Assembly (NCBI GenBank): GCA_034189535.1
Contig: JAXHUQ010000003.1
Coordinates: forward strand, 1-40,841
Length of the DNA stretch: 40,841 nt
Origin: Halobacteriota archaeon
Lineage (GTDB): Archaea > Halobacteriota > Syntropharchaeia > DAOWMC01
Direction of reading: 5' to 3'
The notes below the pieces were generated by a model. The model saw only the letters and a list, made by a program, of their open reading frames with translations. It was not told where the DNA came from and did no database searches. Numbering within the stretch: position 1 is the stretch's first letter; every line of letters begins with the position of its first letter. The translations under genes were made by a program, and so were the position numbers. Shown piece after piece: positions 11,483 to 33,723 of the stretch.

Positions 11483-11554
11483 ATGAGAAAAATGACGGAT
11501 GGCAGGATTTCAGTGGTAATTCCGGTGAAAAATGAGGAGGAGTGGTATACATAA
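11483..11554 (+). pseudogene. Stranded N-terminus of a different GT2 glycosyltransferase
   Basis: MRKMTDGRISVVIPVKNEEEWYT* parallels ITVIVAVKNEE of the GT2 immediately downstream. Confidence 0.7.
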
Positions 11555-12558
11555 ACAACATCTTAATAACAGTCATTGTTGCAGTTAAAAACGAAGAAAG
11601 ATTCATTGAAAAATGTTTAATATCTTTAATAAATCAAGATTTTGCTCAAGATCTCTATCAAATAGTCGTTGTTGATGGAAGGTCAACCGATCGAACAATG
11701 GATATCGTAGAGGAATATATAAAAAAATACCCTGACCTTATCAAAGTATATGATAATCCAATGGAATGGCAAGCAGTTGGGAGAAATATTGCCATTCAAA
11801 ACGAGAAGGAAAGTGAATTAATCACATATTTAGATGGGCATTGCATAGCAGATTCACAATGGTTACGGACTTTGTTTAATGATTTTCAAGCACATGACAA
11901 CCCCAAATTTGCTGGTGTAGGGTCATTACATTTGAGCCCGGATGATGAATCCACTATTGGTAAATCTATTGAGCAAATATTCCATACTTTATTTGGAGGA
12001 ATTGGTTCATCCTTCAGACCTACAGTAATAAGGGGAGAGGTGGAAACAGTTCCTTTTGTATTGTTTAAAAGAGAAGCTTTAGAAGACGTGGGCCTATATG
12101 AAGAGGATATGAAGGTCGGAGAGGATTTTACCTTGAGTTATAAGCTGAGGAGTGCTGGTTATAAACTATTCATCAATCCTAAAGCCATTGTATATCGTTA
12201 TAATAGGAATTCCTTCTATTCTTTTCTTATTCAGATTTATAATTATGGAATAGCAAAGGCAATTAGTGGAAAGAAATTTCCACATTCTCTAAGTGTTTAT
12301 CACTATCTCCCTAGCGTTCTACTAATTTTTTTAGCGATTTTAGGGGTGTTAGGAGTATATTTGGTGGAATTAAGATTATTTTTTTACCGGATTGTTCTTC
12401 TATATGCTGGCGCCATATTAACTTCCTCTATAGTAACTGCTTTTAAAAAGGTGCAATGGACGTTCGCTATTATCATGCCATTATTATATGTTGTGGAACA
12501 TTTTTCCTATAGTATTGGATTTTTATTCGGGATTTTTAAAAAGGGGTGGAAAAGATGA
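11542..12558 (+). CDS. GT2 glycosyltransferase with C-terminal TM helices
   Basis: VIVAVKNEE, VVDGRSTDRT, LDGH and GED motifs. Confidence 0.9.
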   Translation: MVYINNILITVIVAVKNEERFIEKCLISLINQDFAQDLYQIVVVDGRSTDRTMDIVEEYIKKYPDLIKVYDNPMEWQAVGRNIAIQNEKESELITYLDGHCIADSQWLRTLFNDFQAHDNPKFAGVGSLHLSPDDESTIGKSIEQIFHTLFGGIGSSFRPTVIRGEVETVPFVLFKREALEDVGLYEEDMKVGEDFTLSYKLRSAGYKLFINPKAIVYRYNRNSFYSFLIQIYNYGIAKAISGKKFPHSLSVYHYLPSVLLIFLAILGVLGVYLVELRLFFYRIVLLYAGAILTSSIVTAFKKVQWTFAIIMPLLYVVEHFSYSIGFLFGIFKKGWKR

Positions 12559-14006
12559 AGGTATATTTGCTAAACCCTCCTTTTGTTAAAGGATTTAGTA
12601 GGGGTGTAAGAGGGGTTGGTGAAGCAACTCGCGGAGGGACTTTGTATTGCCCGATTTGGTTATCCTATGCAGCAGGTGTATTGGAACAAGAACACGAAGT
12701 TAAGTTGATAGATGCACAAGCAAGGCAGTGGTTAATCGAAGATGTTTTACAAGATTTAAATAGATTCGATCCAGATTTAATCGTTGTTGAGACTAATTTT
12801 TCAAGTTTGAATAATGACCTTGACATGGTAGATAAAATTAAGACTATATCAAACGCCGCTATTACTATGGTGGGCCCTCCCACTTCCCAATACTTTGAAA
12901 AAATTATAATTGGAAACGGTGTAGGTATTGTAGCAAGGCATGAGTATGATATTACTCTAAAAGAAGTTGCAAATGCGATTCGAAGCGGTACAAGTCTAAA
13001 AAAAATAAGGGGTATTTCTTATATTGAATGTGGTAAGGCGATTAACAATCCTGACAGAGAATATACCAACTCTGAAGATTTGGATGGAATGCCGTTCGTA
13101 TCAAAAACATATAAAAAACATCTCAACTTGAAGGATTACTTTTTAAGTTCTTCTCTTTATCCTACGATACAGATATTCACAGGGAGAGGGTGTCCAAATC
13201 AATGTACATTCTGTTCTTGGCCTGAGACTTTAATGGGAAGAAAGTACAGAGTCAGAAGTGTAGCGAATGTTTTGGATGAATTTGAATATATCGAAAATGA
13301 GCTTCCTGAAGTAAAAGAGATCTTCATTGAGGATGACACATTCACTATCAGTAAAAAGAGAGTTTTGGCGTTTTGCGAAGATTATAAGAAAAGAGGTTTA
13401 AACATAACCTGGTCATGCAACGCTAGGGCCAATTCACTGGATTTGGAAACGATGAAAGAGATGAAGAAGGCCAACTGCCGATTGCTTATCGTTGGATATG
13501 AATCGGGAAATGATGAGATCTTAATAAACATAAAAAAGGGCATAACATCTCAACACATAAGGGATTTTTCAAAAAATGCACGAAAAGCCGGATTGCTCGT
13601 ACATGGTGATTTTATAATTGGTTTACCAGGTGAGACAAATGAGACAATTATGGTTACAAAGAAAATGATACATGAGGTAAAACCCGATCTCTTACAAGTT
13701 CTGGTCCCCCAACCAGTCCCGGGAACACATCTTTATGATTGGTGTAAAGAACATAAATTTTTACTCACAGAGGATCCAAATGAGTATCTGGATGAAAATG
13801 GACATCAAAAGGCAATTATTTCTTATCCGGAACTTAGCAATGAAGAGATGGTAAAAGAGGTGGATGAAATATTGAAAAATTATTATATGAGTCCGTCTTA
13901 CATACCGCTAGCTATGAGGCAGGTGCTTAGGAAAAACGGATTGGACGAAGCGAGAAGACTCTGGTATTCTATGAGGATGTTTTTAGGTTATGTTGGGAGG
14001 AGGTGA
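12555..14006 (+). CDS. B12-binding-domain radical SAM protein, HpnJ-like
   Basis: LLNPP...PIWLSYAA N-terminus, GRGCPNQCTFC, EDDTFT, GYESG and DFIIGLPGET; ATGA overlap with GT2. Confidence 0.88.
   Translation: MKVYLLNPPFVKGFSRGVRGVGEATRGGTLYCPIWLSYAAGVLEQEHEVKLIDAQARQWLIEDVLQDLNRFDPDLIVVETNFSSLNNDLDMVDKIKTISNAAITMVGPPTSQYFEKIIIGNGVGIVARHEYDITLKEVANAIRSGTSLKKIRGISYIECGKAINNPDREYTNSEDLDGMPFVSKTYKKHLNLKDYFLSSSLYPTIQIFTGRGCPNQCTFCSWPETLMGRKYRVRSVANVLDEFEYIENELPEVKEIFIEDDTFTISKKRVLAFCEDYKKRGLNITWSCNARANSLDLETMKEMKKANCRLLIVGYESGNDEILINIKKGITSQHIRDFSKNARKAGLLVHGDFIIGLPGETNETIMVTKKMIHEVKPDLLQVLVPQPVPGTHLYDWCKEHKFLLTEDPNEYLDENGHQKAIISYPELSNEEMVKEVDEILKNYYMSPSYIPLAMRQVLRKNGLDEARRLWYSMRMFLGYVGRR
13890..14006 (+). 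repeat. Radical SAM 3' end, copy A (in use)
   Basis: Encodes SPSYIPLAMRQVLRKNGLDEARRLWYSMRMFLGYVGRR*. Confidence 0.95.
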
Positions 14007-14010
14007 AACA

Positions 14011-14235
14011 ATGGTAAGTATTGTAAGAATAAAAGAAGTTAAGGAGAATGTAGTGCTACGCAAAGAGGACTTTGAAAGTCTGATAGGGGAGATGGAATCT
14101 TTGATGGAGACCATAGAGATTTTAAGCGATAAGGATCTGATGGGACAGATAAAGAATAGTGAAAAAGATATTAAAGAAGGAAATGTCCTCGAAATAATGA
14201 CTGAGAGTGATATGAATAATTTGTTTGTGGAGTGA
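14011..14235 (+). CDS. Putative RelB/Phd-like antitoxin
   Basis: Small acidic protein with ESLMETIEILSDKDLMGQIK, directly upstream of RelE; RBS GGAGGAGGTGA. Confidence 0.8.
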   Translation: MVSIVRIKEVKENVVLRKEDFESLIGEMESLMETIEILSDKDLMGQIKNSEKDIKEGNVLEIMTESDMNNLFVE

Positions 14236-14239
14236 TCTT

Positions 14240-14548
14240 GTGAGATACAGCCTGAAGTACACCAAGACCTTCAAGAAACAGATTGATAGGCTGAAGAAGA
14301 AAGACAAAGCATTGATGGAAGAGTTGATGAAGAAGGTGAAGAAACTACAGGATGTACCGCATTCCGGAAAGCTCCTGAAATATCAACTCTCTTATTATAG
14401 GTATAGGTCTCTGCGAATAAAGAAAAAATATAGACTTGTTTATGTGGTAGATGAGAATGAAAACACGGTGATACTGGTTGCATTTGGACACAGAGAGGAA
14501 ATATATAAGCTCATGCTGTTGTCATTTGAAGAAGAACGGAAAGAGTGA
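14240..14548 (+). CDS. RelE/ParE-family toxin
   Basis: Basic protein with PHSGKLL, YRSLRI, YRLVY and FGHREEIY. Confidence 0.88.
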   Translation: MRYSLKYTKTFKKQIDRLKKKDKALMEELMKKVKKLQDVPHSGKLLKYQLSYYRYRSLRIKKKYRLVYVVDENENTVILVAFGHREEIYKLMLLSFEEERKE

Positions 14549-14591
14549 TGGTATGAATTATATAGGAACGGCGTTGAAGGAATACCGCCCA

Positions 14592-14708
14592 AGTCCGTCT
14601 TACATACCGTTAGCGATGAGGCAGGTATTTCGAAGGAATGGGTTGGATGAAGCTAGAAGGCTCTGGTATTCGATGAGAATGTTTTTGGGGTATGTTGGAG
14701 GGAGGTGA
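14592..14708 (+). repeat. Radical SAM 3' end, stranded copy B
   Basis: Encodes SPSYIPLAMRQVFRRNGLDEARRLWYSMRMFLGYVGGR*; 35/38 aa identical to copy A. Confidence 0.95.
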
Positions 14709-14713
14709 TTACA

Positions 14714-14953
14714 ATGGTAATAGAAGTAAAAGTTCCAAAAGAGATCGATCTGAAGATAAAGAGTGATAAGGACCTTGAAGGAATCATAAAGAGGAAGATA
14801 GAAATGGAGATCTTTAAAGAAATAAAAGGAGATATATTCCTCTCGATGCTCTTTGATAAACTCCTTGAAGAGAGTGAACTAACAGGTGGAGATGTTGATG
14901 AGATTGATCACAAGGTTAAGAAGGGCATCATGGAGAATCTGGGATGGAAATAG
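14714..14953 (+). CDS. Putative VapB-type antitoxin
   Basis: Small protein overlapping the PIN gene; RBS GGAGGTGA supplied by copy B. Confidence 0.7.
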   Translation: MVIEVKVPKEIDLKIKSDKDLEGIIKRKIEMEIFKEIKGDIFLSMLFDKLLEESELTGGDVDEIDHKVKKGIMENLGWK

Positions 14954-15369
14954 TCGCTGACACGAATGTGATAATTTCAGCGCTGTTAAGAGATGGACTG
15001 ACAAGAAAACTATTGCTCCTCGCTCCTTTTGACTTTTACACCGTGGCTTATTCAAAAATCGAGATAGAAACGCACAGAAATGAGCTTCTTAATAGATCCA
15101 AACTTGATGAGGAGGCTTTTCAGTACCTTATAGATTTAATTTTCAGTAAAATTTGTGTCGTGGAATCCAATGTTATCGAAGCTTACAGGAAGAAAGCTAT
15201 TGATGTCATGCGTGGTATAGATATTAGCGATTCCCCTTTCATCGCGTTGGCAATGCATTTAAATTGTTCAATATGGTCGAATGATAAGCATTTTAAAGAA
15301 CAAAATGTTGTCAAAGCATATACAACTAAAGAGATCATGGCGTTATTGGGGGAGGCTGCAGAAGAATGA
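14944..15369 (+). CDS. PIN-domain (VapC-type) toxin
   Basis: VADTNVIISAL, DISDSPFIALA and IWSNDKHF acidic motifs. Confidence 0.9.
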   Translation: MEIVADTNVIISALLRDGLTRKLLLLAPFDFYTVAYSKIEIETHRNELLNRSKLDEEAFQYLIDLIFSKICVVESNVIEAYRKKAIDVMRGIDISDSPFIALAMHLNCSIWSNDKHFKEQNVVKAYTTKEIMALLGEAAEE

Positions 15370-15476
15370 TATCGCTCGCTCAGAGGCAGGTGTTTAGGAG
15401 AAACGGGTTGGATGAATTAAAGATGCTCTGGTATTTGATGAGGATGTTTTTGGGGTATGTTGGACGTGTAAAATGA
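15366..15476 (+). repeat. Radical SAM 3' end, stranded copy C (36-aa mini-ORF)
   Basis: MISLAQRQVFRRNGLDELKMLWYLMRMFLGYVGRVK*; ATGA overlaps with the PIN stop and with the GT4 start. Confidence 0.92.
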
Positions 15477-16696
15477 AGATTTGTATGATATGTCCCGAAA
15501 TTGGGAACTCTGGAAATAATGCGTTTATAGGTGGACACACAAATAACGTAATTAGATTATCTAAAGCTTTGCATAATAGGGGGCATGAAATAACAATTAT
15601 TACGACCCCCCATCGCCATCCTGGCGATCAACCCAGCGAGGATTTAGAATGGGCCAAGGTAGTTTGTTTGCCTATCAATGGATCGTTTTCATCTATTGGA
15701 TTTGGGCTAGAATTTGCCTTAAAATCTTTTAACAAAATTCGAAAAATAAATGGAAAAAGTAAATTTGACATTATCCATGGTCATTCTGGATTTACAATGC
15801 CCGCGATTATAACAGGTATAACGAGTATGTTTTTAAATATCCCTTCAGTACACAGTGTTTATTGTCCGATACAGGTAAATAGCAAAAGTACTGTTAAGTT
15901 TTTATCAAATAATGCTTTATCAAGATTTTATTTTTTTCATATAGATAAGGTTATTGCAACGAGCGGATCTGTTTTGGAATCTCTTGTAAATGCAGGTATT
16001 GCTAAAGAAAAAATTGACCTTATACCTCCTTTGATTGGCAACAATTTTAATTCTTCTGTTTCTGGAGAAAAAATTAGAGAAGAGTTTAATATTTTACCGG
16101 AGCAAACCGTTGTAACGTTTGTGGGCAATTTATCAAAAATAAAAGGTATAGATATATTGATTGATTCTTTAAGCTACTTAAAAGAAGAATACCATGATAT
16201 AATGCTTTTAATGGTATTAAATCTACCTTTAAGTAAATATAATAATCCTGAAATATTGGAAGCGGATGCAGAATTGCTACCGGAAATCAAAAGAAAGATA
16301 AAATCATATGGATTGGAAGAAAATGTCATTCCGATTGGTTTGACCGAAAAGATGCCCCAAATCATGGCTGCAAGTGATATTTTCACAATGCCTTTTTTAA
16401 ACTTGGTGGGAGTTGCCGACCCGCCTATTTCCCTAATAGAAGCCATGGCTATCGGAAAACCAGTGATTGCGACTAAAGTGGGTAGTGTATCTAAACTCGT
16501 AAAACATAAAGTAAATGGTATACTAATTGATCCAGGAAGCTCAGTTGAATTGGCTGAAGGAATAAAATATCTTATTGAAAATGAAAAAGAATCAAAAGAG
16601 ATGGGTAAAAGAGGATCAAAAATGATTCACGATAATTTTGGAGATGCCACTATTATTAAGAAAATTGAGAATGTTTACGAGTCGGTAGGTGTTTAA
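15473..16696 (+). CDS. GT4 glycosyltransferase
   Basis: FVGNLSKIKGID and EAMAIGKPVIAT motifs. Confidence 0.92.
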   Translation: MKICMICPEIGNSGNNAFIGGHTNNVIRLSKALHNRGHEITIITTPHRHPGDQPSEDLEWAKVVCLPINGSFSSIGFGLEFALKSFNKIRKINGKSKFDIIHGHSGFTMPAIITGITSMFLNIPSVHSVYCPIQVNSKSTVKFLSNNALSRFYFFHIDKVIATSGSVLESLVNAGIAKEKIDLIPPLIGNNFNSSVSGEKIREEFNILPEQTVVTFVGNLSKIKGIDILIDSLSYLKEEYHDIMLLMVLNLPLSKYNNPEILEADAELLPEIKRKIKSYGLEENVIPIGLTEKMPQIMAASDIFTMPFLNLVGVADPPISLIEAMAIGKPVIATKVGSVSKLVKHKVNGILIDPGSSVELAEGIKYLIENEKESKEMGKRGSKMIHDNFGDATIIKKIENVYESVGV

Positions 16697-21790: not shown

Positions 21791-23065
21791 TTACCCTTGA
21801 CCATTATCCATATTACTCATTACCCAACCCATCCCAACTCCACTTGCTATGGCCACGTTACCAATAATCCAAGAATATCCTACTCCAATTATACCCATAC
21901 TTTGCATCAACAGGTAACTTGCCACCAGAGTTATAATTGCAACCCCCCCATAGACATAGATCACAGGCATCACCTCTTTTTGAACTCGTTTTGTCGTTAC
22001 ATAAATTACATTAATCGCAAAAGGTATGCTTCCCAAAGCAAGAACTAGTAACAACTCGTATGAATTCGTTGCATACTCTTCACCGAAGAATCCCAGGATA
22101 TTTCTTCCAAACAAAAATATTCCAATTATTGCTGGCCCAAGTAACAGAAATATGAATTTTAATGCCCTTTTAGTATTGGCACTTAGAGTCTCTTCATTAT
22201 GAGATCCTTCAGCAAGCAAGGAGATAGTAGTCCATCTTGGGATTGTGAGTAACAACATGGAAATTTGCCAAGACATAAAGAAATATGCATTCATTTCCGC
22301 CCCTAAAACATTTATCACCATAATGGGTAACACAAAAACGGGAAGATATTCGAATATTTTTGCAAAATAATTACCAAATGAAAAATGAAAAATATCTTTG
22401 ATAATCTCTATATTTACTGTTGGAATCGGTTTATATGGGAAAATCCTTGATGCTAAAAAGATTCCGAACCCAAAAGCAAGAATTGGAGTTAATCCATACG
22501 GGGCATAAATCCCCAATTCTCCGAATGTTACCAGGAAAGGAATGATTCCCAACCTTGCAAGCGTTACAAGTGTTTGAAATAATGAATATTCAGTTCTTCT
22601 AAATCCGGCAAAAACACCCTGACTTAGCAAACCAGGCAAAGATGTGGTAGCTGAAAAAAATACAAAAAAGAATAAGAAAAATTTATTTTCCCTTATGACG
22701 CTCAATGAAGGCGACCATATGTTTATCCCTGCTACAAATATTAAAGTCAGTATAAGCGATATTATAAATGATATTGTGAGGCACGTGTTAATCAGTTCGG
22801 ATTTATCTTCTCTTTCCGGTAAGAATCTAACAAGTGCAATGTCAAACCCTAATACCGAGAAAATTGAAATTAAACCCATTGCAGAGATAATCGCAGAAGC
22901 AAGTCCTACATCTTCAGTGGAGTAAAATCTTGCAGCGATGATCCAGAAGAAAAAACCAGAACCAGCATTGGTCAAGGATGACATCATCAAAAATATCGAG
23001 TTCCTATACAACGGATCCCTCAAATGCCCCTTCAGCTCTTTTATGCTTGGTATTTTCAGTTTCAT
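21791..23065 (-). CDS. Oligosaccharide flippase (Wzx/MOP family)
   Basis: LYRNSIFL, GFFFWIIAARFY and VRFLP; about 12 TM helices. Confidence 0.88.
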   Translation of the reverse strand: MKLKIPSIKELKGHLRDPLYRNSIFLMMSSLTNAGSGFFFWIIAARFYSTEDVGLASAIISAMGLISIFSVLGFDIALVRFLPEREDKSELINTCLTISFIISLILTLIFVAGINIWSPSLSVIRENKFFLFFFVFFSATTSLPGLLSQGVFAGFRRTEYSLFQTLVTLARLGIIPFLVTFGELGIYAPYGLTPILAFGFGIFLASRIFPYKPIPTVNIEIIKDIFHFSFGNYFAKIFEYLPVFVLPIMVINVLGAEMNAYFFMSWQISMLLLTIPRWTTISLLAEGSHNEETLSANTKRALKFIFLLLGPAIIGIFLFGRNILGFFGEEYATNSYELLLVLALGSIPFAINVIYVTTKRVQKEVMPVIYVYGGVAIITLVASYLLMQSMGIIGVGYSWIIGNVAIASGVGMGWVMSNMDNGQG

Positions 23066-23073
23066 ATTGATAT
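22987..23073 (-). repeat. Flippase 5' end, copy 1 (in use)
   Basis: MKLKIPSIKELKGHLRDPLYRNSIFL plus upstream ATATCAAT. Confidence 0.95.
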
Positions 23074-23205
23074 TCCGTAAAGCGTAATCAATGATTCGTA
23101 ATGCGTGATCAGTGATTAGTAAAGTGTAAAGCGTGATCAGTAAAACGGGATGTGTTACCCATTACCCTTCACGCATAACTCATTACCCGTTTCACCCATC
23201 ACCTG
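23074..23205. repeat. Inverted heptamer array 1 (long imperfect hairpin)
   Basis: About 10-11 units NNNGTRA (tccgtaa agcgtaa tcaatga ttcgtaa tgcgtga...), spacer tgtg, then about 7 units TYACNNN (ttaccca ttaccct tcacgca taactca...). Confidence 0.9.
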
Positions 23206-23565
23206 TTAATGTTTTCCCTTTTGATGCTTTATCAGGCCGAGTAACATTCTTCTTATTCTTTCAATGCTTCCGTTCATGTCCTCGGTTTCCAGGAACCCTA
23301 ATTCTTTCGATAATTGCAACTGTGTTTCTAATTCGGCAAGAGAGCCCAACGATACATAAAGGAATTGAATGAATTCCTTGTTTGAATTTCTCGCTGCACC
23401 TTCAGCTATATTACTCGGAATTGATACTGATGCCCGTCTTATTTGAGATACCAATCCATAAGTCTCTTCTTTGGGGAACTCTGCTGTTACTATGTATATC
23501 TCTTTTGCCAGGGCCATTGCCTCTTTCCAAACATCAAGATCCTTGTGTGTTTTAATTCCACTCAT
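23206..23565 (-). CDS. Four-helix-bundle protein (23S rRNA IVP-like family)
   Basis: HKDLDVWK, FPKEETYGLVSQIRRASVSIPSNIAEG and GSLAELETQL. Confidence 0.93.
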   Translation of the reverse strand: MSGIKTHKDLDVWKEAMALAKEIYIVTAEFPKEETYGLVSQIRRASVSIPSNIAEGAARNSNKEFIQFLYVSLGSLAELETQLQLSKELGFLETEDMNGSIERIRRMLLGLIKHQKGKH

Positions 23566-23617
23566 AACTCATTACTCTTCACGCATTACCCATTACTCGT
23601 TACTCATTCATCACTTA
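23565..23617. repeat. Direct heptamer array upstream of the four-helix-bundle gene
   Basis: taactca ttactct tcacgca ttaccca ttactcg ttactca ... tcactta. Confidence 0.88.
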
Positions 23618-23842
23618 TATCTTTTCAATGATGGATAGGTATTCATCCCTTGTCATACCAACTGTTTTCATATTATTTCTTATGATGGTGACAGGAACTT
23701 CATCGTACTTTGGAATGACTACGGCTCTTTTTGCGTTTTGGTGATGGAATATCATATGGTCCCCTTTCTGCCTTACGAATTTGCAACCATATTTCTCGAA
23801 GATTTTAACCTGTGTTTTCCAGTTTGTGGGTTTGATCTTCAT
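23615..23842 (-). CDS. hicA: HicA-family toxin
   Basis: YGCKFVRQKGDHMIF and VVIP motifs. Confidence 0.88.
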   Translation of the reverse strand: MKIKPTNWKTQVKIFEKYGCKFVRQKGDHMIFHHQNAKRAVVIPKYDEVPVTIIRNNMKTVGMTRDEYLSIIEKI

Positions 23843-24120
23843 TACAGAACTCCAACCGAGATCGATAGCTCCTCAAATCCCACTATCTTCTTCTCAGTTT
23901 TAAGCACCCCATCCTCTAAAACATAACCAGCTTCTGCCAAAAAATCTTTCAATGTGCCAAGTTTGGCTGTCTCTTCAAATTGTATTTGAATAACCTCTTC
24001 CAGATTCTTTTTTGCCTCTTCGTGTGTGTGACCACAACTTGCGATATCCAATTCCGGACAGTAGGCAGTAAACATCCCTCCCTCCTTCCATATCTCAACC
24101 GTGGCAATTATATTTTTCAT
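23842..24120 (-). CDS. hicB: HicB-family antitoxin
   Basis: AYCPELDIASCGHTHEEAKKNLEE; TAATG coupling to hicA. Confidence 0.88.
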   Translation of the reverse strand: MKNIIATVEIWKEGGMFTAYCPELDIASCGHTHEEAKKNLEEVIQIQFEETAKLGTLKDFLAEAGYVLEDGVLKTEKKIVGFEELSISVGVL

Positions 24121-24184
24121 CGGATATCCCTCACACTTTATTAGTAAAGATACTATATTGTAACTTTCGCATCATCTATTTGTC

Positions 24185-24271
24185 TCAAAAATATCGAGTT
24201 CTTATACAAAGGATCCCTCAAATGCATCCTCAGCTCGTTTATGCTTGGTATTTTTAGTTTCATATTGATAT
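24185..24271 (-). repeat. Flippase 5' end, stranded copy 2
   Basis: MKLKIPSINELRMHLRDPLYKNSIFL then unrelated RQIDDAKVTI*; same upstream ATATCAAT as copy 1. Confidence 0.95.
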
Positions 24272-24365
24272 TCCGTGATGCGTAATCCGTAAACCGTGAT
24301 CGTTGATGCATAATGTGTTACCCATTACTCGTCACCCATAACTCATTACCAATTACTTGTTATCC
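24272..24365. repeat. Inverted heptamer array 2
   Basis: tccgtga tgcgtaa tccgtaa accgtga tcgttga tgcataa tgtg ttaccca ttactcg tcaccca taactca ttaccaa ttacttg. Confidence 0.9.
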
Positions 24366-24366
24366 T

Positions 24367-24624
24367 TTACTTATAAGCTCTCCTTCTAGGTAAAATAGCA
24401 TAAATTACAATAACATAACCCTCTTGAAGTTCAAAAAGAACCCGATATTCTCGCACCCTCAAACGATAATGGTTCTTATATCCTTTTAACTTCCTTATAT
24501 CAAGCTCAGGAGAAAAACCGCTCTTAAGTTTGGTTATCTTGTCCTTTATCACACCACTTATGCTTGGATCTAAACCGTCTAACTGTTTTTGCGCCTTTCT
24601 TTCGAGAAATACCTTATATTTCAT
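24367..24624 (-). CDS. RelE/ParE-family toxin
   Basis: DIRKLKGYKNHYRLRVREYRVLF and PRRRAY. Confidence 0.9.
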   Translation of the reverse strand: MKYKVFLERKAQKQLDGLDPSISGVIKDKITKLKSGFSPELDIRKLKGYKNHYRLRVREYRVLFELQEGYVIVIYAILPRRRAYK

Positions 24625-24778
24625 TCAGTTCAATCTTTTTATTGCTCTTTCTATCTTCGTAATCCTCTATTTCTTTAATTTCATCTTCTTCAGGCTCTTC
24701 TATACCTATCAATCTTGAATCGATTATCCCTTCAATCTTCTCAAGCATAAGTTTTATCTCGGTTACTTCTTTACTCAT
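24614..24778 (-). CDS. Putative antitoxin, 54 aa (not in the ORF track)
   Basis: MSKEVTEIKLMLEKIEGIIDSRLIGIEEPEEDEIKEIEDYEDRKSNKKIELNEI*; acidic, GGTGA RBS, overlaps relE start. Confidence 0.8.
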   Translation of the reverse strand: MSKEVTEIKLMLEKIEGIIDSRLIGIEEPEEDEIKEIEDYEDRKSNKKIELNEI

Positions 24779-24817
24779 TTCACCCATATTTATACCAAAT
24801 ATTACATTAGGTTGTTT

Positions 24818-24832
24818 GTATTTAACCTTTTA
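24818..24832 (-). promoter_or_regulatory. BRE/TATA promoter of the RelBE cassette
   Basis: AAAAGGTTAAATA on the minus strand, about 40 bp before the antitoxin ATG. Confidence 0.6.
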
Positions 24833-24858
24833 TCTCAAGATCGTTACTTGCTTTATTT

Positions 24859-24902
24859 AAATGCCCCCTAATCTCTTTTATGCTTGGTATTTTTAGTTTC
24901 AT
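24859..24902 (-). repeat. Flippase 5' end, stranded copy 3
   Basis: MKLKIPSIKEIRGHL then unrelated NKASNDLEIKG*; GGGGAG RBS upstream. Confidence 0.92.
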
Positions 24903-24916
24903 TTCTCCCCAACAGA

Positions 24917-25162
24917 TCAGATCTTCTTTTTACGGTAGAAAAGGTCAATATACTCCTCATTTGTGAGGCCTGCTCTTGTAATGAGCTTCTTAAGAAGCCC
25001 TACACCAAGTGTTTTACCTTTGTGCACTGGTATGGACAGGTGAATATCACAATCTTCTTTCACCAGGATATAATAACTCCCTTCAACATGGTTCACTTTT
25101 TAACCTTCTTTTTTAAAAGTGGCGATATGTTTATCCCCACTCGCCCTTGGGAGTTTAGGCAT
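24917..25162 (-). pseudogene. hicA: HicA toxin pseudogene
   Basis: MPKLPRASGDKHIATFKKEG*KVNHVEGSYYIL...SIPVHKGKTLGVGLLKKLI; in-frame TAA at 25100-25102 and GSH motif changed to GSY. Confidence 0.85.
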
Positions 25163-25180
25163 GTGTTGTTCCGGTGATAT

Positions 25181-25393
25181 CTACTGATATGTCGAGTTTA
25201 TGCTGAAAGGAGGGGATTTTAGATGTTCTCCTACTTCCCTCAGCCTTGATCTTAAACAACCGACAATCGCTTCGTTTATATTCTCGATCGCCTCTTCAAG
25301 ATTTTCTCCTTCTGAAAGACAGCCCGGAAGGTCGGCGCATTCGACCACATACCGCCCATCTTCATCGATCTCAATTGTGATACGAAATTCCAT
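25181..25393 (-). CDS. hicB: HicB-family antitoxin (short)
   Basis: EDGRYVVECADLPGCLSEGENLEEAIENINEAI. Confidence 0.88.
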   Translation of the reverse strand: MEFRITIEIDEDGRYVVECADLPGCLSEGENLEEAIENINEAIVGCLRSRLREVGEHLKSPPFSINSTYQ

Positions 25394-32421: not shown

Positions 32422-33054
32422 ATGGTTAAAGCTAATCGTAGATTGTCATTGTCCCAAGATGAGGCACAGATGGGTATCGGTACATTGATCATATTTATTG
32501 CTATGGTCCTTGTTGCGGCTGTTGCGGCAGCTGTTCTGATACAGACAAGCGGTGTCCTTCAGCAGAGGGCAACCGAGACAGGAAAAGAGGCGACAGCCGA
32601 GGTATCATCAAACATTGGCGTCGAGACGATCATAGGAGAACGGCTTACGGCAAGTTCAGCCAATCTTCAGATGTTAAATATCTCAATCAAGGTTATGGCG
32701 GGAGCTGGCGATATTGATATATCTCAGATGAGAGTTGTAATCCAGAACGAGACAACACGTAAAGACAATATACAGCTAAATACGTCATCAAGTACCACCG
32801 CAGACGCAACTCATTTTGCAGTTATTGTGTATAGGGATGTGGATGACTCATACAATGCTAGCTCTGGTAATTACGTTATAAATAGTGGAGATCTGATTGA
32901 AATAGATGTTAATTTAACGGCAATAGGTACCAACATTCCTGCAAGGGAACCATTGAGAATCGAACTGATTCCGGAGCATGGGGCAGCAGTGATAAAGGAA
33001 CTTACAATGCCTGCATCATACGGTGTAGACATCTTCATACCGGTGTTCCCGTGA
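32422..33054 (+). CDS. flaB: Archaellin
   Basis: Class III signal, then QMGIGTLIIFIAMVLVAAVAAAVLIQTSGVLQQRA. Confidence 0.93.
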   Translation: MVKANRRLSLSQDEAQMGIGTLIIFIAMVLVAAVAAAVLIQTSGVLQQRATETGKEATAEVSSNIGVETIIGERLTASSANLQMLNISIKVMAGAGDIDISQMRVVIQNETTRKDNIQLNTSSSTTADATHFAVIVYRDVDDSYNASSGNYVINSGDLIEIDVNLTAIGTNIPAREPLRIELIPEHGAAVIKELTMPASYGVDIFIPVFP

Positions 33055-33114
33055 TACGGGACGGAGGTTTCACAGTTTTGTTTCATTATCATTATTATAA
33101 CTTCAAGATAAAAA

Positions 33115-33723
33115 ATGAGGGCTAACAGGAAGGCTACGATTCACTGTGCTGAAGATGCACAGATGGGTATAGGTACACTCATTATATTTATATCCATGGT
33201 CCTTGTCTCTGCCGTTGCCGCTGCAGTATTGATTTCCACATCCGGCATTCTCCAGGAACGTGCAACCGACACCGGCAAAGAGGCGACCGAAAGTGTTGCA
33301 ACAAATCTAAAGGTGGTTCAGACCAGTGGAAGTCGTCCAACAGCTTACAATCACACTCTTGAAGATATCTCTATGAGGATTACTGTTAGCGCAGGGAGCA
33401 GACAGATAGATCTGAGCCAGGTTGCAATAAACATAATAGACGGAATCACTTCAGTGGATCTTACTTATAGTAACAGCACCGCTAACGCAACAAAATTCAA
33501 CATCACTGTTTTACGTGATGAAGACGGCTCATTCAGTGCCCAGTACCCAATTATAAATTCAGGTGATCTCGTAGAAGTCTTAATTGATGCAGATGCTGCC
33601 GGTCTTGTCATCGATCCAAGGACAAATGTTCAGATGTTCATAGTACCTGAGATCGGTAATCCTGTCCTTCACAAATTCAGAACTCCAAGCTCTTATGGCC
33701 TCAATCTACAGATATCACTTTAA
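33115..33723 (+). CDS. flaB: Archaellin, second paralogue
   Basis: QMGIGTLIIFISMVLVSAVAAAVLISTSGILQERA. Confidence 0.93.
   Translation: MRANRKATIHCAEDAQMGIGTLIIFISMVLVSAVAAAVLISTSGILQERATDTGKEATESVATNLKVVQTSGSRPTAYNHTLEDISMRITVSAGSRQIDLSQVAINIIDGITSVDLTYSNSTANATKFNITVLRDEDGSFSAQYPIINSGDLVEVLIDADAAGLVIDPRTNVQMFIVPEIGNPVLHKFRTPSSYGLNLQISL

Follow-up and report, generated by a model that had tools for sequence, protein, structure and literature searches.

Repeated ends of a radical SAM gene around toxin-antitoxin cassettes in an archaeon suggest gene-end displacement by homologous recombination

Why should the last codons of one enzyme gene recur twice downstream of it, each time behind a pair of small genes? 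This question is raised by a contig of a Halobacteriota archaeon (GenBank assembly GCA_034189535.1, contig JAXHUQ010000003.1), whose 40,841 nucleotides (nt) were analysed whole and are called the window here. In it, a gene for a B12-binding radical S-adenosylmethionine (radical SAM, rSAM) protein and a glycosyltransferase family 4 (GT4) gene are separated by what the sequence identifies as an array of two type II toxin-antitoxin cassettes, a RelE/ParE-type one followed by a PIN one (Table 1). Copies of the 3' end of the rSAM gene, which we call tails, stand before, between and after the cassettes. Tail A probably completes the working rSAM gene, and tails B and C would be its displaced former ends. 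The array itself is likely to have grown by gene-end displacement, through homologous recombination in the rSAM tail.

A repeat search found three direct repeats of a 117-nt unit, all within 1.6 kb: tails A and B, which are 84% identical, and a third copy at 15357-15473 (68% ungapped). These three copies were the only tail matches in the 1.82-Mb assembly of the window's own genome (G000, in which the window is contig C118); most other local direct repeats found when that genome was compared with itself belong to tandem paralogues or to repeat proteins. Between A and B there are 19 base differences, 14 of them at third positions. Our recount agrees with an earlier note on this DNA, in which 17 of the 38 codons were said to differ, 14 synonymously and three non-synonymously (L/F, K/R and R/G). 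By the Nei-Gojobori method there are 16.0 synonymous differences over 24.3 sites and 3.0 non-synonymous differences over 89.7 sites, giving a ratio of non-synonymous to synonymous divergence (dN/dS) of 0.022. None of 20,000 random placements of 19 substitutions changed three or fewer amino acids (mean 12.4), and had B evolved without constraint over half of the synonymous distance that separates it from A, about 44 non-synonymous differences should have accrued, against the three observed. These results bear out the contention of the earlier note that neutral decay of a local duplicate cannot give such a bias. Tail C, which is in frame with A and B from 15369 and is one codon longer, showed 75-76% identity to them over 102 nt and a dN/dS of 0.18-0.23; it is indeed the most diverged copy and is coupled to the GT4 gene by an ATGA overlap, as had been noticed before. 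In addition, the likeness of A and B continues past the stop codon into the start of the next gene (13890-14017 against 14592-14720), where the proposed junction signature, GGAGGTGA and ACAATGGTAA separated by a in A and by tt in B, is present at both places.

To place the copies within the gene family, a protein database was searched with the last 62 residues of the rSAM protein. From the 111 proteins returned, that of the window and three of at most 430 residues were set aside, and the tails of the other 107 were aligned with the three copies. In the 38 downstream codons of B (B-down), every state is either shared with A or common in the family. The 13 codons ahead of them (B-up) gave a different picture. 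Four conserved positions hold residues found in none of the 107 tails, where the commonest residue occurs in 95, 101, 107 and 76 of them; the start Met is likewise unseen at its position; and only 14 of 39 nt (36%) match the corresponding part of A, while the flanking stretch is 84% identical. Family tails that come closest to B-up (7-8 of 12 residues) agree with B-down at 20 of 38 positions at most, and the closest to B-down (28-35 of 38) agree with B-up at 2-3 of 12. Since the two parts have different nearest relatives, B is a hybrid, in which an old decayed remnant of one allele class is joined to a recently working tail at the conserved SPSYIP codons; A and B show no difference over the first 18 nt at this join. 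Such a make-up is what one would predict if a tail fragment had come in and crossed over with the resident tail. Tail C carries S, Q, M and L at conserved positions, each with a frequency of at most 0.01 among the family tails, and these four rare or unseen residues show it to be apparently under relaxed constraint. A metagenome scan with the three-tail alignment yielded two loci, L044 and L045, and no B- or C-type end. L044 is an ordinary allele, and L045 holds at 134-442, at its contig start and ahead of a GT4 gene, a degraded 102-codon rSAM 3' fragment with an internal deletion, which is probably another displaced tail.

A gene end joined to the start of a cassette was also found on a distant allele. 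L024 is a 2.8-kb contig in a Thermodesulfobacteriota bin, a label that is weak evidence of the organism. Its rSAM protein is 69% identical to that of the window overall, and 59 of its last 60 residues are identical to those of A. At the DNA level, identity is 66.1% up to 13756 (n = 1205 aligned positions) and 92.1% from 13757 (n = 291); the maximum chi-square method placed the breakpoint after 13756, and none of 500 permutations reached this contrast. The phylogenetic breakpoint for which the earlier note had suggested a test near 13870-13890 was thus found at 13756/7 instead. The 92% part takes in the rSAM 3' end, the stop codon and an identical junction word, and runs 37 nt into the antitoxin-position gene of cassette 1 before the contig ends; when the remainder of cassette 1 was sought in the genome of L024, only the same contig end was found. 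Over 27 codons, all six differences between A and the L024 tail carry the states of B, which points to conversion of tail copies by one another. In a run of the study from which the window may come, one contig fits the window from 13757 on and continues L024-like upstream, and an rSAM variant in another run of the study is about 10% diverged both before the breakpoint (138/1343) and after it (23/213). Because this divergence is even across the breakpoint, the contigs suggest that the genus of the window kept a continuous allele and that the lineage of L024 was the recipient of an A-type piece. The proposal that the cassettes imported the ends of foreign alleles therefore holds in one respect, in that an end together with a cassette does move between alleles, here and between the genomes G049 and G025 described below; the direction suggested by the contigs is the opposite of the one proposed for tail A.

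A second comparison was provided by G001, a representative genome of the same genus, whose contig begins at the antitoxin-position gene of cassette 1 and holds both cassettes and both remnant positions. The block 14013-15369 is common to the two genomes and about 99% identical, while long matches elsewhere are 73-88% identical. The four toxin-antitoxin genes differ by 4, 3 (plus a 6-nt indel), 1 and 1 substitutions, nine over about 1190 nt; B-up differs at 4 of 39 nt and B-down at 3 of 117, one of these changing R to S at a conserved site, and the junction after the tail is the same word as in B with tg in the middle. The third tails share an unusual Ser at a conserved Pro position and two identical runs, of 34 and 27 nt. 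Beyond 15463, still within the tail, their similarity is lost for good, and the third tail of G001 is ATGA-coupled to a sulfatase-like gene (named by eye) in place of GT4. Compared with B, the third tail of G001 has nine synonymous and no non-synonymous differences over 27 codons, so that these two would seem to be another pair of recently working ends. On its left, the block begins within tail A or immediately behind it, at a point that the contig differences listed bracket between 13926 and about 14010. Sharp breakpoints in or beside the tails are thus seen against two other genomes.

The shared block fits a single unit of cassettes plus tail that entered each lineage by a crossover near the conserved end of the tail; it would fit equally well if the inner part of an older array had been exchanged. 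C may for the most part have come with the block, in which case the native-looking part would be its last 13 nt and the coupling to GT4. These comparisons alter two points of the earlier note. Since the RelE/ParE-type cassette (RelBE in the note), B and the PIN cassette are shared whole as one block, the order 'PIN first, RelBE second' would describe how the block was assembled somewhere and does not stand as two arrivals in this genome. As for C as the ancestral end, its ATGA junction with GT4 does match that of relatives: the rSAM gene is directly ATGA-joined to GT4 in L005, L010 and L030, where GT4 starts within 6 nt of the rSAM end, and this supports an rSAM-ATGA-GT4 junction as the likely ancestral state. 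The body of C, which may have arrived with the block, is a less certain part of that claim.

Is this arrangement confined to one genus? The 62-residue tail was searched in 79 representative genomes of the class and was present in 12, the window's own included. Six of the 12 carry more than one copy: three in G000, two each in G001, G025, G049 and G074, and five in G031. Between the tails, Pfam names RelE/ParE-type, PIN and UPF0175 genes, and others were recognised by eye only. In G025 (apparently the same as locus L035), behind the working gene come a UPF0175-type antitoxin gene, a 158-codon gene that has the look of a PIN-type toxin and no Pfam match, and a 110-codon frame that contains 72 tail codons and overlaps the following gene. 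The working end and UPF0175 cassette of G025 correspond to a displaced tail and cassette in G049, with 93-98% identity in the cassette and 77-83% in the tail; ahead of this unit, G049 has a second tail, of the other class, with a homologue of the window's second antitoxin-position gene behind it. G031 harbors an orphan array (L060, G031:C50, 3196-6951) without a full-length orthologue upstream, in which five tails, one of them frameshifted, accompany a nucleotidyltransferase, a Phd/RelE pair and a UPF0175/PIN pair (all by eye), and the last tail runs into a GT4-start stub. In G074, the gene is followed by 35 nt of a cassette start that is also present in G031, a fused UPF0175/PIN-like frame, a tail, a sulfatase-like gene, a tail stub and GT4. 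Among ten wider archaeal loci with 5 kb of downstream flank, one (L035) has a second tail; in L028, small frames lie between the two genes and no tail remnant was detectable there.

Several of these loci showed further peculiarities. The array of L060 adjoins a 38%-identical paralogue that has GT2 and GT4 genes of its own (GT2, glycosyltransferase family 2). In L061 (G074:C61, 2495-4178, minus strand), the sulfatase-like gene lies between tail remnants, and about 40 codons from its start recur as a second copy joined to the second tail stub, which implies that larger cargo can enter by this route. In L062 (G049:C36, 1-2600), a transposase-like zinc-finger fragment takes the place of the rSAM body ahead of the first tail, and the interval between the tails holds a truncated PIN start, a HicAB pair and another PIN pair on the opposite strand (by eye). 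A contig of run X3 fits the window up to the end of tail B (14706) and then has other letters, including an ATGAATTATGTTGG start like that of B-up, which hints at another tail arrangement in the community.

How could such an array be built? In the displacement that we favour, cassette DNA carrying a piece of rSAM tail would recombine with the resident tail by homology, most likely as a circle by a single crossover or as a linear piece joined by homology on one side and irregularly on the other. A complete end (A) would stay with the working gene, and the former end would be pushed downstream as a remnant (B, then C). From then on the repeated tails would act as homology arms, by which blocks could pass between lineages and tail copies could convert one another, and a lineage addicted to the toxin-antitoxin pairs would not easily lose the insertions. 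The last 13 nt of C, which look native, are also as such a crossover would predict. At a virgin site, the first duplication would need an irregular join, for example by homology-facilitated illegitimate recombination, which could produce it (PMC3240628); as characterised there, that process is laboratory-defined in bacteria, and alone it does not explain recurrent tight junctions.

A number of observations weigh against this account. The edges of the cassettes are tight, running from antitoxin start to toxin stop, and unrelated cassettes have the same first bases after the tail, as seen behind A and B, behind the first tail of G031 and the gene of G074, and behind the second and third tails of G031. 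Random irregular joins do not predict shared bases after the tail, and a more specific process may thus act. From this pattern it would seem that the start of a resident cassette is often kept and new cargo joined in directly behind it. In G049, the second antitoxin-position gene starts ATGGCAATAG behind an unrelated 58-nt spacer; since the start is kept there, ATGGTAA looks native to this gene, from which the first cassette may have acquired it. Tails that are 16-25% different should, moreover, recombine poorly with one another. Extra conversion events have to be added to the block model to account for the third tails of G000 and G001, where 13 of 98 nt are different, in two patches (4/12 and 8/20 nt). 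The earlier note had expected full-length genes with B- or C-type ends, and none was found among the 111 proteins, in which the best family matches after the A-type P0002 reach 29 of 38 positions for B-down and 23 of 35 for C. Finally, no excised circle, cassette-skipping joint or empty site was seen in the community contigs, which cannot show rare forms; the sole contig joint listed, from 13259 to 13405 (one contig, 21 letters on the shorter side), is unrelated to the cassettes.

Tight edges, tandem accretion and the short stretch after the stop codon that unrelated cassettes have in common would also be expected if the tail were the attachment site of a site-specific recombinase encoded elsewhere, the cassettes being integrase-less, cis-mobilisable and stacked in tandem in the manner of islands at tRNA genes or gene 3' ends, or of integron cassettes; the reuse of the same target, with extra copies in half of the tail-bearing genomes, can be read in this way as well. 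We regard this explanation as unlikely. Breakpoints fall at differing positions in the tails (13756/7, 13890/14592 and 15463), the remnants vary in length from about 24 to 72 or more codons, and the copies are merely 68-84% alike, with no identical core of fixed extent. The tails fold no better than shuffled sequence on either strand (z -1.6 to +0.7), and no attC-like hairpins as in integrons were found in the three of them. A search for PF00589 found no tyrosine recombinase or integrase on C118 and three matches in the assembly, on C117, C192 and C30 (serine recombinases and transposases were not searched). Far less probable still is that the gene end was duplicated locally in tandem, decayed neutrally and received the cassettes afterwards. 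Direct repeats lying close together are what such a history would produce, but the substitution pattern of A and B, the contrast between 36% identity in B-up and 84% beside it, and the A-type end with a cassette start on the foreign allele L024 all contradict it; local duplication with decay was rejected on these grounds.

The synonymous bias would also arise if the short frames of B and C were selected in place, as peptides or as translated bridges. Both frames are open, in G001 too; they start 4 nt past the toxin stop (B) or overlapping it (C) and stop 5 nt before the next start (B) or overlapping it (C), and B-down has no unusual residue. Selection for a bridge, though, would have to keep the frame open and would have no need to conserve its protein sequence. 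Decay is seen in the first 13 codons of the B frame, C has its four rare or unseen residues, and one of the G031 tails is frameshifted. Between G000 and G001, B-down has changed at 3 of 117 nt, the R-to-S change at a conserved position among them, against 9 of about 1190 nt in the toxin-antitoxin genes. Selection in place is thus improbable in our view, less probable than an attachment site. The unbroken chain of stop and start codons is striking all the same, and the frames may act as a relay regardless of their protein sequence. A broader and more tentative idea, which we put forward as a possibility well short of the displacement account, is that the rSAM tail is a recombinase-free capture site with integron-like stacking. 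Units of cassette plus tail would loop out between neighbouring tails, pass among co-resident lineages and re-enter any tail by a single crossover, and the displaced tails might be ribosome relays, short translated frames that would restore the ATGA coupling to GT4 broken by each insertion.

Gene-end displacement has parallels in several known systems. Islands made by integrases and cis-mobilisable elements accrete in tandem at the 3' ends of genes; as in the window, the element restores the 3' end of its target, the displaced end lies on the far side and copies pile up in tandem. Such islands depend on a site-specific recombinase and on att repeats with a fixed core, whereas the repeats here vary in length and differ by 16-32%. 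For the displacement of Rhs C-terminal ends, homologous recombination with circular intermediates has been proposed (Jackson et al. 2009, PMC2935791). That report describes, much as we find here, a lateral piece that recombines with the conserved 3' part of the resident gene and gives it a new end, while the old end remains downstream with a conserved piece and arrays of displaced ends accumulate. Orphan cdiA-CT/cdiI modules are a related case (PMC3150448). The window shares repeated 3' fragments downstream and a laterally exchanged end, decoupled from the gene body, with such displacement arrays, and has no differing toxins fused to the tip. An Rhs tip is a different toxin domain fused to the protein and accompanied by an immunity gene, whereas here the same conserved tail is re-encoded, the cargo is a separate two-gene toxin-antitoxin operon, and the host gene encodes a putative archaeal glycolipid or glycan enzyme and not a secreted toxin.

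Minimal mobile elements, in which variable cargo lies between conserved flanking genes, offer another comparison (PMC3787668). As defined there, they resemble the window in cargo held between specific flanks, recombination in the flanks and the lack of a mobility gene of their own; at the locus studied here, the rSAM/GT4 flank pair is conserved, the cargo varies among genomes and the edges of blocks lie in flank-derived tails. By the same definition they do not duplicate the flank, while here a piece of flank follows every cassette, which results in stacking and not in replacement (PMC3787668). Among the titles and abstract openings surveyed, no description of toxin-antitoxin cassettes flanked by duplicated gene ends in archaea was found. 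Gene-end displacement and cargo between conserved flanks are thus known already; what is new is the combination of several toxin-antitoxin families at one archaeal enzyme gene, recurrence in six of 12 genomes, the selective signature and hybrid tails that expose crossovers. The spread of chromosomal toxin-antitoxin pairs that lack mobility genes is poorly explained, and these loci offer a concrete route, in which a cassette would ride on a piece of a conserved host gene, repair that gene on landing and leave a repeat that eases the next insertion or exchange. Such a route would link co-resident lineages whose genomes are otherwise 12-27% diverged, and would be a recombination-only, testable counterpart of integrons and of Rhs tip displacement. 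These loci also carry a warning for annotation, in that short frames resembling conserved peptides can be displaced gene ends.

Table 1. Positions of the rSAM-GT4 locus parts in the window.
Feature	Position	Strand	Basis or remark
GT2 glycosyltransferase gene	11542..12558	+	Pfam PF00535, 70 bits; overlaps start of rSAM gene
B12-binding rSAM gene, HpnJ-like; probable working copy, ending in tail A	12546..14006	+	Pfam PF04055 and PF02310
Stretch in common with distant allele L024 (92%): rSAM 3' part, stop, junction, first 37 nt of antitoxin-position gene	13757..14047	+	
Tail A: final 38 codons and stop of working rSAM gene	13890..14006	+	
Junction word A: GGAGGTGA (Shine-Dalgarno-like, contains rSAM stop), a, ACAATGGTAA (contains antitoxin start)	13999..14017	+	sequence
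Cassette 1 antitoxin-position gene, 74 amino acids	14011..14235	+	position upstream of toxin
Cassette 1 RelE/ParE-superfamily toxin gene	14240..14548	+	PF05016 and NCBIfam RelE_StbE
B-up: 13 codons, apparently decayed rSAM tail of other allele class	14553..14591	+	ATG 4 nt past toxin stop
B-down: tail B, 38 pristine codons and stop	14592..14708	+	with B-up, a 51-codon open frame
Junction word B: GGAGGTGA, tt, ACAATGGTAA	14701..14720	+	sequence
Cassette 2 antitoxin-position gene, 79 amino acids	14714..14953	+	position upstream of PIN gene
Cassette 2 PIN-domain toxin gene	14944..15369	+	overlaps antitoxin-position gene by 10 nt
Tail C: 36-codon open frame	15366..15476	+	ATGA overlap with PIN stop; ATGA overlap with GT4 start (15473-15476)
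GT4 glycosyltransferase gene, conserved downstream partner	15473..16696	+	Pfam PF00534 and PF13439

All frames from 11542 to 16696 are on the plus strand, and neighbours overlap or sit at most 5 nt apart; from rSAM to GT4 the successive contacts are gaps of 4, 4, 4 and 5 nt, a 10-nt overlap, ATGA and ATGA. Both toxin genes were identified by family matches. The toxin of cassette 1 scored 52 bits against PF05016 (cut-off 23), covering positions 1-89 of 89, and 41.8 bits against RelE_StbE (cut-off 27.9), and that of cassette 2 scored 97 bits against Pfam PF10130 PIN_2 (cut-off 22.4) over positions 1-120 of 133. Neither antitoxin-position gene has a Pfam or NCBIfam match, and for the one in cassette 1 this covers the antitoxin families. 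The 74-codon frame of the latter stops 4 nt ahead of the GTG of its toxin gene, and its homologues in G024 and G033 are 54% identical, their own start codons being ambiguous. The antitoxin-position gene of cassette 2 has a homologue behind a different tail in G049, 78% identical in amino acids and 87% in nucleotides; the gene pair of cassette 2 is kept in G001.

The rSAM gene scored 422 bits against the NCBIfam model HpnJ, under its equivalog cut-off of 577.6, and is therefore called HpnJ-like and not HpnJ. In most related loci its homologue has a GT2 homologue upstream, and the GT2 and HpnJ-like rSAM genes at 11542-14006 resemble the HpnI/HpnJ pair, which makes the sugar head group of hopanoids. 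The product in this archaeon may be a cyclitol-type head group on a lipid or glycan.

Elsewhere in the genome, other cassettes flanked by repeats were noticed. On the minus strand of the window at 22987-25393, a second case lies at the start of a gene, the Polysacc_synt flippase gene (21791-23065). Its leader and first 15-26 codons are present in three copies (23127-22987, 24318-24185 and 24902-24859), of which one pair encloses a HicB/HicA pair with a 23S_rRNA_IVP gene and the other an antitoxin/RelE pair; a further HicBA pair is found upstream. Between copies 1 and 2 there are two synonymous and four non-synonymous changes in 26 codons (by eye), and thus no synonymous bias. Runs of GTAATGRGT-like words and their complements occur on the minus strand at 23070-23215, 23560-23610 and 24318-24365; these words flank the 23S_rRNA_IVP (four-helix bundle) gene and precede the copies of the flippase leader, and the runs may mark a small repeat-bounded element. 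A third case in this genome is possibly represented by contig C48 of G000 (1-989), which holds, in this order, a 104-codon 5' piece of a GT2 gene, a small two-gene pair that by eye resembles a DUF4258-type toxin with a zinc-finger antitoxin, and, at the contig edge, a 46-nt repeat of the GT2 start (96%). The 137-nt repeat at 32458 and 33151 of the window has another origin, because it belongs to tandem paralogues at 32422-33723, archaellin- or pilin-like by eye, whose N-terminal signal regions are nearly identical.

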